A stretch of 64,000 bases of DNA, taken from sequence record NC_070993.1, one strand, 5' to 3'. The notes under the pieces are model-generated. The model made no database searches. It saw only the letters and a list, made by a program, of their open reading frames with translations, and had not been told where the DNA came from. Positions 33,534-34,112 of the stretch are shown here, in pieces; positions within the stretch are counted from its first letter, which is position 1, and each line of letters opens with the position of its first letter. The translations under genes were made by a program, and so were the position numbers. The DNA is from Escherichia phage vB_EcoP_IMEP8.

Positions 33534-34112
33534 TTAGTAAGACACATCACCACTTGAGTGGGACATGTTGCTCTTGACAAAGTAGCAATACTTGCCAAGA
33601 CCTTCATTAATTTCTTGAAGCATACTCTGATCAACTGGATAAGTGGCTAAATCACCATCAAACTCATCCATCTTCTCAATAATACACATCAAGGTCATGC
33701 ACATATCAGAGAGCATACCGTCCATGTCTAGGTCAGCATTACCCTCTGAGAACCAAGCATGAGAAAGATAATTGGCTGCTGTAGCGTCCACTTTAACACA
33801 GTGGTAACGCATACGTTCAGCAATACGATCTCCTACTTGTCGTGCGTAATCTTCCAGCTCATCAAACATACCATGAACACCCTGAAATCCTGCACCAGAG
33901 ACGTTCCAGTGGTAGTTTTTAGCTTTGATATGCAAGAGTTCCATGTTAGCTTGTAAGCAGCTCAGGATGTGTTCTAGGCTGTTTCCACTAATCATACCCT
34001 GCATCGTTTCGAGGCGAGAGATTGAAAGCTCAGACCGGTCTAACATATTATAGTCGGCACGACCAATCTCAGGTAAGTCAAAGACATTCTTATGCATTTG
34101 GGTTATCTCCAT
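33534..34112 (-). CDS. Dps/ferritin-like protein
   Basis: LQANMELLHIKAKNYHWNVSGAGFQGVHGMFDELEDYARQVGDRIAERM matches Dps ferroxidase-site region. Confidence 0.6.
   Translation of the reverse strand: MEITQMHKNVFDLPEIGRADYNMLDRSELSISRLETMQGMISGNSLEHILSCLQANMELLHIKAKNYHWNVSGAGFQGVHGMFDELEDYARQVGDRIAERMRYHCVKVDATAANYLSHAWFSEGNADLDMDGMLSDMCMTLMCIIEKMDEFDGDLATYPVDQSMLQEINEGLGKYCYFVKSNMSHSSGDVSY

Follow-up and report, generated by a model that had tools for sequence, protein, structure and literature searches.

A divergent Dps-family mini-ferritin with a conserved ferroxidase center in Kuravirus and related prolate C3 podophages

Among phages related to phiEco32, a Dps protein has been known since 2008, when the record of phiEco32 gp67 (ABY52868.1) received the note "DNA-binding protein; member of the Dps family," and in 2014 the protein was reported to be conserved throughout the C3 podophages (PMC4281155). 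The stretch of DNA that we analyzed (the window, 64,000 nt of Escherichia phage vB_EcoP_IMEP8, NC_070993.1) belongs to a Kuravirus, a phiEco32-like prolate podophage, and encodes a protein of this gp67 type, 97 to 100% identical to the products of dozens of deposited Kuravirus genes. Compared with phiEco32 gp67 and SU10 CDS67 (97 to 99% identity), it has the same length of 187 aa, the same position, and the same neighbors, and we found no difference of substance, the few substitutions falling in the variable residues 13 to 23. SU10 CDS67 (98% identical) has been seen by MS, with 6 peptides and 35.8% coverage (PMC4281155). In the literature that we searched, we came across no phage Dps that had been examined biochemically or genetically.

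The gene lies on the minus strand, which the initial annotation left unstated. According to the list of open reading frames (ORFs) and their translations, the ORF spans positions 33534 to 34133, and the segment 33534..34112(-) translates into 192 aa, within which the motif quoted in the initial annotation is indeed found, as KNYHWNVSGAGFQGVHGMFDELEDYARQVGDRIAERM (residues 60 to 96 in the 187-aa numbering, nt 33810..33920). The start given there, at 34112, is probably 15 nt too far upstream. We favor the ATG at 34097, since it is preceded by GGAG at 34110..34107 with a 9-nt spacer and overlaps, as ATGCATAA, the stop codon of the upstream gene (a homolog of gp68), and since a length of 187 aa fits the annotation of phiEco32 gp67, the 187-aa cluster representative, and the 21.2-kDa SU10 CDS67. 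Reading of the sequence showed no Shine-Dalgarno sequence for the ATG at 34112. The Dps coding sequence thus probably covers 33534..34097 on the minus strand (187 aa plus stop, 21.2 kDa), and the in-frame upstream extension (34098..34133, same strand), which holds the ATG at 34112, a TTG at 34133, and the GGAG ribosome-binding site of the ATG at 34097, is probably untranslated. Plus-strand ORFs over this region (42 to 79 aa) were unsupported and were set aside. The gene is under strong purifying selection, with a dN/dS of 0.03 to 0.07.

Sequence and structure comparisons confirm that the gene encodes a genuine Dps-family mini-ferritin. The Pfam entry Ferritin (PF00210) matched above its gathering score (31.1 bits versus 24.5; E value, 2.6e-7), over residues 60 to 114 only, and PHROG 3636 matched over its whole profile (E value, 2.7e-55). 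A phmmer search of PDB sequences yielded 59 matches at an E value of ≤1, 58 of which were Dps-family chains, the sole other one being a weak match to the NTF-2-like protein 3en8 (E value, 0.63). A profile of 16 homologs matched 53 PDB sequences, all of them Dps, with residues 39 to 171 of the phage protein aligned to residues 5 to 139 of Dlp-2, and at an E value of ≤0.001 both searches returned Dps chains exclusively. The AF2 model predicts helices at residues 41 to 65, 72 to 98, 107 to 112, 125 to 150, and 154 to 176 (core pLDDT of 85 to 96), i.e., a four-helix bundle with the short helix in the B-C loop that is typical of Dps. With this model, the top 50 Foldseek matches were all Dps (target TM scores of 0.8 to 0.9, with a maximum of 0.91; rmsd of 1.2 to 2.6 Å), and the top structural neighbors were all dodecamers. 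The Dps/ferritin-like assignment of the initial annotation was thus borne out by the Pfam, PHROG, PDB, and Foldseek matches alike, and the similarity goes far beyond what chance would produce. A 24-mer ferritin or bacterioferritin was rejected, as the significant PDB sequence and fold matches were all 12-mer Dps proteins, barring one engineered Dps-Bfr chimera. The score against NCBIfam NF006975, the equivalog for E. coli-type Dps, was 34.5 bits, below the cutoff of 114, and the scores against the DpsA equivalogs were likewise far under their cutoff. Given these scores and the restriction of the Pfam match to residues 60 to 114, the phage protein represents a divergent Dps subfamily and is not an ortholog of the host Dps.

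The segment comprising helices A and B (33810..33920, minus strand) contains H63, W64, H75, D79, D90, and E94. These residues align without gaps to H51, W52, H63, D67, D78, and E82 of E. coli Dps and to H31, W32, H43, D47, D58, and E62 of Listeria Dps. This mapping is consistent with the ungapped range of the phmmer match to 1dps. All five metal ligands and the neighboring Trp are present in the phage protein, in line with the initial annotation, which had read this motif as Dps ferroxidase-center helices and had named missing ligands, with best matches to an unrelated four-helix-bundle family, as the opposite outcome. The six residues are invariant in the 16 homologs, at identities down to 48%, and among 166 relatives H63, H75, and D90 are kept in every one and E94 in 165, the ligands being retained over an identity range of 31 to 100%. 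The ferroxidase ligand set of the phage Dps is intact and under selection.

We also compared the protein with Dps from bacteria and from other phages. M. smegmatis Dps2 (2z90/4m35), B. anthracis Dlp-2 (1jig), B. subtilis MrgA (2chp), and Listeria innocua Dps (1qgh) are 19 to 27% identical to it and share the four-helix bundle, the short BC helix, the Trp, and the ligand spacing H-x11-H-x3-D-x10-D-x3-E; unlike these solved proteins, that of the phage is lengthened by an additional N-terminal segment, has A/P/S instead of D/D/D at the pore, and is of an unusually Met- and Cys-rich composition (15 Met and 5 Cys; pI of 4.7). The E. coli host Dps has the same ligands, and its helices A and B align ungapped (39% identity over 41 residues), but its overall similarity is very weak (phmmer E value of 0.1 to 0.2), so that the gene is no recent capture from the host. 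A search of 185,579 representative genomes for a bacterial source or prophage copy found none, only four ordinary cellular Dps genes with 32 to 48% identity over the ferroxidase helices. The phage orthologs Privateer gp068, SE131 gp090, and LAh_8 gp125 (Grimontviridae/Lahexavirus; 31 to 45% identity) share with the window protein the ferroxidase ligands, a WFxEG motif in the BC loop, a Pro at the position of Listeria D126, the YF(V/L)(K/R)S motif of the C-terminal helix, and a nucleotide-metabolism context with a gp68 homolog nearby. They differ from it in lacking the 44-residue acidic N-terminal extension, their N termini being short and more basic, and in the presence, after the Dps gene, of a gene for an ATP-cone protein (NrdD/NrdR type) of ∼95 aa; we looked for a homolog of the latter in the window and found none.

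The Dps gene characterizes the prolate C3 podophage lineage in its entirety. That Dps homologs are uncommon in lytic phages, as initially claimed, is correct in part: tblastn detected relatives in 166 of 50,697 phage records, and fusions of Dps to prohead proteases are abundant in metagenomic phages. An IMG/VR scan retrieved mostly the same isolate lineages and no new context. Several GenBank Kuravirus records label the gene "integrase"; the entry "integrase [Escherichia phage IME267]" (P0005) is a 188-aa PF00210 protein. Ferritin is the only Pfam match of the window protein, which has no tyrosine- or serine-recombinase catalytic domain, and calling the gene an integrase is an annotation mistake.

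Three features distinguish the phage Dps from canonical members of the family, namely, the 44-residue N-terminal extension, the residues A151, P154, and S158 at the three-fold pore, and the conserved, translationally coupled upstream gene gp68. The extension (33966..34097, minus strand) is net acidic and specific to Dps of the Gordonclarkvirinae type; AF2 places a low-confidence helix at residues 18 to 37 (pLDDT of 44 to 62), and in the homolog alignment FDLP and SxxRLExM are conserved and residues 10 to 25 are variable. The first 40 residues carry 4 basic and 6 acidic residues (net charge of −2) and the C-terminal 9 residues carry no Lys or Arg, so that the protein has no Lys/Arg-rich DNA-binding tail, a feature that defines the DNA-binding subset of Dps and not the whole family; the E. 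coli protein has such a tail, Lys-rich and N-terminal. The acidic three-fold pore is formed by D121, D126, and D130 in Listeria Dps and by D142 and D146 in E. coli Dps. The Listeria residues align to A151, P154, and S158 (the loop preceding helix D aligns with less certainty), and Pro and Ser/Asn at these positions are conserved across the phage clade. Iron entry may therefore be slower or follow another route, or nearby acids (the D144-D149 cluster and D156) may substitute for the pore residues. Since the acidity of the three-fold pore varies among bona fide Dps proteins, its absence does not exclude membership in the family.

The gp68 homolog (34090..34419, minus strand; 109 aa, phrog_10984) lies upstream of Dps and is translationally coupled to it. 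In Privateer and LAh_8, a homolog immediately precedes the Dps gene, and the SE131 homolog is found at a distance of 1.3 kb from it. The gp68 protein matched nothing in Pfam and NCBIfam; its AF2 model (pLDDT of 63) suggests a putative small Tudor/SH3-like beta-barrel, and Foldseek returned Tudor, KOW, and SH3-type barrels at E values of ≥4e-3, none of them significant. The SU10 ortholog of gp68 has been detected by MS, and a phiEco32-type middle/late promoter motif has been described, with a promoter positioned upstream of CDS68 (PMC4281155). In the window, AAATGTATATA matches this motif (tAATGTATAtA) at 34456..34466 on the minus strand, ∼40 nt ahead of the ATG of gp68, so that the middle unit likely opens with gp68 and Dps. 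A terminator-like hairpin (33499..33527, minus strand; 11-bp stem with 7 G-C pairs) lies 7 nt past the Dps stop codon; its T-tail is weak, and its energy of −15.9 kcal/mol is marginal against shuffled sequences (z = −1.6).

The initial annotation had placed Dps next to thioredoxin and ThyX. Both genes are indeed just downstream on the same strand, thioredoxin at 33010..33285 (PF00085; E value, 1.2e-12) and the flavin-dependent thymidylate synthase ThyX at 32338..32994 (PF02511; E value, 3.1e-43), with one ORF between them and Dps (33294..33473, minus strand; 59 aa with two hydrophobic segments, phrog_9296). A dCTP deaminase gene (35311..35844, minus strand; PF22769; E value, 3.5e-34; PHROG 1663) belongs to the same nucleotide-metabolism module. 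The redox/nucleotide submodule that had been suggested on this basis is more strongly supported than was claimed, because the context recurs: dCTP deaminase, thioredoxin, ThyX, and PhoH surround the Dps gene in Privateer, SE131, and LAh_8, and the neighborhood is conserved between these phages and Kuravirus.

We propose, with a probability of roughly 0.62, that the protein forms a dodecameric cage that detoxifies Fe2+ and H2O2 from the start of middle transcription and keeps iron and peroxide low during phage DNA replication and packaging. By analogy with solved Dps proteins, we infer that twelve four-helix-bundle subunits assemble into a hollow cage, in which each two-fold interface would hold two Fe2+ ions, coordinated by H63, H75, and D79 from one subunit and by D90 and E94 from the other. 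The bound Fe2+ would be oxidized, preferably by H2O2, and the Fe3+ stored inside the cage, so that both Fenton reagents would be removed. As the second gene after the middle promoter, translationally coupled to gp68, Dps would be expressed at the outset of the middle phase, together with thioredoxin, ThyX, dCTP deaminase, and the replisome. Meanwhile, the phage, which carries a gene for a sigma-70 holoenzyme inhibitor (PMC4281155), would shut down host sigma-70 transcription and hence any induced oxidative-stress response, while the cage would keep free iron and peroxide low as phage DNA replicates and is packaged. Against this role, lytic infection lasts minutes, a period in which iron storage has little obvious chance to make a difference. 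A purely cytoplasmic role also does not predict that the Privateer ortholog copurifies with virions.

This copurification is one argument for a cage that is loaded into the capsid or travels with it, possibly via the N-terminal segment or gp68, and that would guard the packaged genome from iron and peroxide outside the cell as an encapsulin-like trap, in the manner of ferritin-like encapsulin cargo. The Privateer protein was one of ∼10 proteins detected in particles that had passed a CsCl step gradient and equilibrium centrifugation, although iron-loaded or DNA-bound Dps cages could conceivably band with phage in CsCl. The conserved extra N-terminal segment of the Kuravirus protein would fit such a function, and Dps inside a procapsid has a precedent: hundreds of metagenomic phage proteins carry Dps domains fused to prohead proteases, and the fusion genes occupy the terminase-portal-protease-capsid slot. 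In these fusions (e.g., P0208, P0198, and P0214), a PF00210 domain matching the same PHROG 3636 is joined to a Peptidase_S78 or XkdF-type protease of the head-assembly module, whereas the Dps of the window is free-standing and its gene sits in the middle replication module. Some fusion proteins have a Tudor-type small barrel beside the Dps domain, echoing the gp68-Dps pair, but the match of gp68 to these Tudor domains is weak (hhalign probability of 26% over 25 columns). We found no discussion of the fusion pattern in the literature that we searched. The detection of SU10 CDS67 by MS does not argue for packaging, because that sample was only PEG precipitated and also contained DNA polymerase, thioredoxin, and sigma factor (PMC4281155), and gp67 is missing from the SU10 structural-protein list obtained from purified virions. 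We regard transport with the virion as quite improbable. A cage that serves phage nucleotide metabolism as an iron buffer or iron donor (e.g., for a ribonucleotide reductase or its Fe-S activase), or that shields oxygen-sensitive enzymes instead of DNA, strikes us as equally doubtful. The Dps gene is always embedded among nucleotide-metabolism genes, the ATP-cone gene follows it in Privateer, SE131, and LAh_8, and anaerobic ribonucleotide reductase subunits are adjacent in LAh_8; however, the window has no ATP-cone homolog, the stretch of phiEco32 that we examined carries no annotated ribonucleotide reductase, and ThyX, thioredoxin, and dCTP deaminase are not known to be iron-dependent enzymes.

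Dps dodecamers might instead coat or compact replicating phage DNA, shielding it from nucleases and radicals or condensing a long genome for a narrow prolate head, a reading that we consider unlikely. The E. coli protein is able to bind and compact DNA and, in vitro, to shield it against restriction enzymes, but an in vivo assay with EcoRI showed no protection by Dps (PMC12802909). The presence of the gene throughout the prolate C3 lineage, its database label "DNA-binding protein," and the short, basic N termini of the Privateer and SE131 orthologs (net charges of +3 and +2, counted by eye) would agree with DNA binding. Direct binding via a basic tail in the E. coli style is, however, unlikely for the Kuravirus protein, judging from its acidic sequence (pI of 4.7; net charge of −2 in the N-terminal 40 residues) and its C terminus devoid of Lys and Arg, and the DNA-compacting role considered in the initial annotation is disfavored for the same reason. 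Dps proteins without basic tails, such as those of Listeria and Agrobacterium, generally lack DNA binding. Gordonclarkvirinae show an unusual resistance to restriction-modification systems, which the BASEL authors credit to suspected DNA modification by dCTP deaminase and a nucleotidyltransferase (PMC11990801). An anti-restriction shield made of Dps is an unlikely explanation of this resistance, given the lack of a basic tail, the negative EcoRI result in vivo, and the fact that restriction hits entering DNA before any middle gene can be expressed. Finally, a degenerate or repurposed bundle devoid of ferroxidase activity, e.g., a scaffold or a binding partner of gp68, would account for the noncanonical pore, the divergence below the NCBIfam cutoffs, and the tight coupling to gp68. 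We judge it highly improbable, as loss of function should relax the ligand positions, which together with the neighboring Trp are strictly conserved across relatives of 31 to 100% identity in a gene under strong purifying selection.

In practical terms, our analysis provides a corrected start codon for the Dps gene. The records labeled "integrase" could wrongly flag therapeutic Kuravirus candidates as temperate, and "DNA-binding protein" is a poorly supported label for the acidic, tail-less Kuravirus Dps. The fusions between Dps and prohead proteases suggest that phage capsids may contain iron-handling cargo, in parallel with encapsulins. For Kuravirus, our results confirm the existing annotation, that of a mini-ferritin with an intact site, likely expressed early in the middle phase. 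The Dps gene marks an entire lineage of strictly lytic phages, in which it is strictly conserved.

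The Dps open reading frame lies on the minus strand and runs from a TTG at 34133 to the stop codon at 33534-33536. The initial annotation placed the gene at 33534..34112 (192 aa), starting at an in-frame ATG; the reading frame is real and its translation contains the quoted peptide, KNYHWNVSGAGFQGVHGMFDELEDYARQVGDRIAERM, but the ATG at 34097 is the more likely start as judged from the sequence. A GGAG stands before this ATG at a spacing of 9 nt, and the start overlaps the upstream gene's stop codon as ATGCATAA, whereas the ATG at 34112 lacks a ribosome-binding site. The resulting CDS (33534..34097) encodes a protein of 187 aa and 21.22 kDa, in agreement with the phiEco32 annotation and a 187-aa database cluster for length and with the 21.2 kDa given for the SU10 orthologue, CDS67, for mass.

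The protein almost certainly belongs to the Dps family, as had been proposed, and sequence or profile matches in Pfam, PHROG, and the PDB bear this out together with the predicted fold. The suggested HMM search against the ferritin-like superfamily was positive, with Pfam Ferritin scoring 31.1 bits (gathering score 24.5), and PHROG 3636 matched end to end (E 2.7e-55). All significant phmmer matches in the PDB were Dps proteins, the best being M. smegmatis Dps2, B. subtilis MrgA, and B. anthracis Dlp-2 (E ~3e-9); the sole non-Dps match, 3en8, was weak (E 0.63). A profile of 16 homologues retrieved only Dps from the PDB, over nearly the whole domain (E 6e-15). The AlphaFold model (mean pLDDT 80, core 85-96) has four long helices and a short BC-loop helix, which sets Dps apart from other ferritin-like bundles, and its best 50 Foldseek matches in the PDB were Dps dodecamers (rmsd 1.2-2.6 Å).

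In BLASTP, residues 55-95 align without gaps to residues 43-83 of E. coli Dps, and the ungapped HMMER range for 1dps (query 61-100 in the 192-aa numbering, chain 44-83) gives the same ligand mapping. Alignment to E. coli and Listeria Dps reference sequences, which reproduce the known ligand numbering, identified the ferroxidase residues H63 (H51 in E. coli, H31 in Listeria), H75 (H63, H43), D79 (D67, D47), D90 (D78, D58), and E94 (E82, E62), and the ferroxidase-site W64 (W52, W32). All six are present and show no variation among 16 homologues with identities as low as 48%; H63, H75, and D90 occur in 166/166 relatives and E94 in 165/166. Pairwise dN/dS against five orthologues was 0.03-0.07. 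With ligands conserved and matches to Dps, rather than ligands missing and an unrelated bundle, the initial annotation was correct overall in both its observation and its Dps interpretation, the checks on family and ligands being positive.

The 44-residue N-terminal extension, which includes a low-confidence helix in the model, contains two conserved motifs, FDLP and SxxRLExM, separated by a variable middle. It is net acidic (the pI of the whole protein is 4.7), in contrast to the short basic N termini of Dps from the prolate podophages Privateer and SE131. E. coli Dps binds DNA via a Lys-rich tail, and a composition count revealed none in the phage protein; Met (15) and Cys (5) are unusually frequent. 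The three aspartates lining the iron-entry three-fold pore of Listeria Dps align to A151, P154, and S158 here, and Pro and Ser/Asn are conserved at the pore positions across the phage Dps clade. The three-fold acidic pore appears to be the sole canonical Dps feature that fails. Since acidic residues (D144-D149 and D156) lie close by, the pore funnel may have been reshaped instead of lost.

The Dps assignment is already known and has been in GenBank since 2008; a note in the record of phiEco32 gp67 (ABY52868.1) describes it as a "member of the Dps family." Our finding is a duplicate of this old annotation and concerns a core gene of a well-sampled phage group. Escherichia phages 172-1, NJ01, PE006, and others share 92-95% identity over the 8 kb surrounding the gene, and >60 Kuravirus records contain a gene whose product is 97-100% identical to the protein, these relatives being phiEco32-like podophages with prolate C3 heads (genus Kuravirus, subfamily Gordonclarkvirinae). 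Several deposited Kuravirus genomes (MN715356, KP308307, and MZ398243 among them) name the same gene "integrase," and a few more call it "ferric iron binding protein." The "integrase" label, which could falsely point to a temperate lifestyle, is an annotation error, ruled out by the absence of a recombinase domain from the protein (33534..34097). The Dps subfamily is divergent: 1.84 billion representative proteins yielded 13 clusters at E 1e-10 and 620 at E 1e-3, and NCBIfam Dps equivalogs scored far under cutoff. Representative bacterial genomes contained no close relative, and host E. coli Dps matches only very weakly (E 0.1-0.2), so the gene was not recently taken from the host.

Dps is predicted to be translationally coupled to the upstream gp68 homologue (34090..34419, minus strand; 109 aa, phrog_10984). 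This upstream-partner arrangement, with overlap of the Dps start codon, is shared by Kuravirus, Privateer, and the prolate podophage LAh_8; gp68 is immediately upstream of Dps in the latter two and 1.3 kb away in SE131. Because gp68 homologues stay near Dps proteins of only 31-45% identity, the pair is conserved across lineages. The gp68 model, a weak one, is a small Tudor/SH3-like barrel whose fold matches were not significant. A match to the phiEco32-type sigma-factor promoter motif, AAATGTATATA, is located at 34456-34466 (minus strand), ~40 nt upstream of gp68, and the window contains 7 copies of the 8-mer AATGTATA versus 2.6 expected. The SU10 study put a promoter ahead of CDS68, where the middle genes begin, and detected both the Dps orthologue and its gp68 partner by mass spectrometry (PMC4281155), which suggests that Dps is made in quantity.

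A hairpin lies 3' of the Dps stop codon, followed on the same strand by a 59-aa hydrophobic ORF, thioredoxin, and ThyX. The proposed redox/nucleotide sub-module thus holds, and Privateer, SE131, and LAh_8 carry Dps in the same nucleotide-metabolism neighborhood. On the upstream side, three tandem paralogues (34492..35107, minus strand; 69, 69, and 65 aa, all phrog_4939) separate gp68 from the dCTP deaminase region, and dCTP deaminase and a 468-aa nucleotidyltransferase (35311..37260, minus strand) belong to the same module as Dps. The BASEL authors suspect these two enzymes of a DNA modification that would explain the strong restriction resistance of the Gordonclarkvirinae (PMC11990801); the co-encoded ThyX counts against plain dU-for-dT replacement. 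Directly after Dps, Privateer (L002, 3898-4194), SE131 (L003, 3911-4210), and LAh_8 (L004, 3929-4201) encode an ATP-cone-like protein of 90-99 aa, annotated as ribonucleotide reductase or NrdR-like regulator, and anaerobic ribonucleotide reductase genes adjoin in LAh_8; the window has no ATP-cone homologue.

The Dps fold and the intact, selected ligands point to a putative dodecameric ferroxidase cage, in which twelve subunits would use H2O2 to oxidize Fe2+ at sites between subunits and retain Fe3+ in the interior, thereby curbing Fenton chemistry. The conserved ligands contradict a bundle devoid of catalytic activity. DNA coating or compaction, as the database label implies, would be in keeping with the prolate-head lineage and with the restriction resistance of the Gordonclarkvirinae (PMC11990801), but the window's Dps is without any basic tail, Dps gave no in vivo protection of DNA from EcoRI (PMC12802909), and a middle gene cannot shield entering DNA. 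Supply of iron to nucleotide enzymes fits the neighborhood of Dps in relatives, yet the enzymes adjoining it in the Kuravirus window do not use iron. For the ferroxidase cage, expression would come among the first middle genes, alongside thioredoxin and replication and nucleotide enzymes; the phage encodes an inhibitor of host sigma-70 RNA polymerase (PMC4281155), and the host might by then no longer be able to induce its defenses. Timing, companion genes, and inhibitor fit with the phage supplying its own oxidative-stress cover. We give this whole statement (Dps cage, Fe2+/H2O2 detoxification, the phage's own cover) a probability of about 0.6, where assembly, activity, and physiological role are what we infer; the literature searched yielded no experiment on any phage Dps.

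Dps was among ~10 proteins of Privateer particles from CsCl step gradient and equilibrium centrifugation. The SU10 detection is not comparable, because that "virion" sample was only PEG precipitated and also contained polymerase, thioredoxin, and sigma factor (PMC4281155), and a later SU10 structural study did not have gp67 among the structural proteins. The evidence is against Dps being a major virion component in this Kuravirus, which we regard as very unlikely. Among viral structures, Dps domains were seen in proteins named prohead protease, and a database search yielded 376 proteins with E <= 1e-5, the majority of which join PF00210 to Peptidase_S78 (HK97-type), in metagenomic phages; some join the Dps domain to an XkdF-type protease, a Hva1_TUDOR domain, DUF5824, or a Zeta toxin domain. 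The hhalign probability between gp68 and the Tudor domains of the fusions was 26%, suggestive of a possible relationship. No paper on these fusions was found in the searched literature. In two examples (L026, 6001-7413; L027/L028, 6001-8577), the fusion gene either lies between the genes for portal and major capsid protein or follows terminase and portal, and this terminase-portal-protease-capsid slot implies that the Dps domain would enter the procapsid in those phages; a capsid-associated role is therefore conceivable for free-standing phage Dps. Beyond the known assignment, the gene gains interest from its noncanonical pore and N terminus, its conserved gp68 partner, and the lead toward a capsid cargo.
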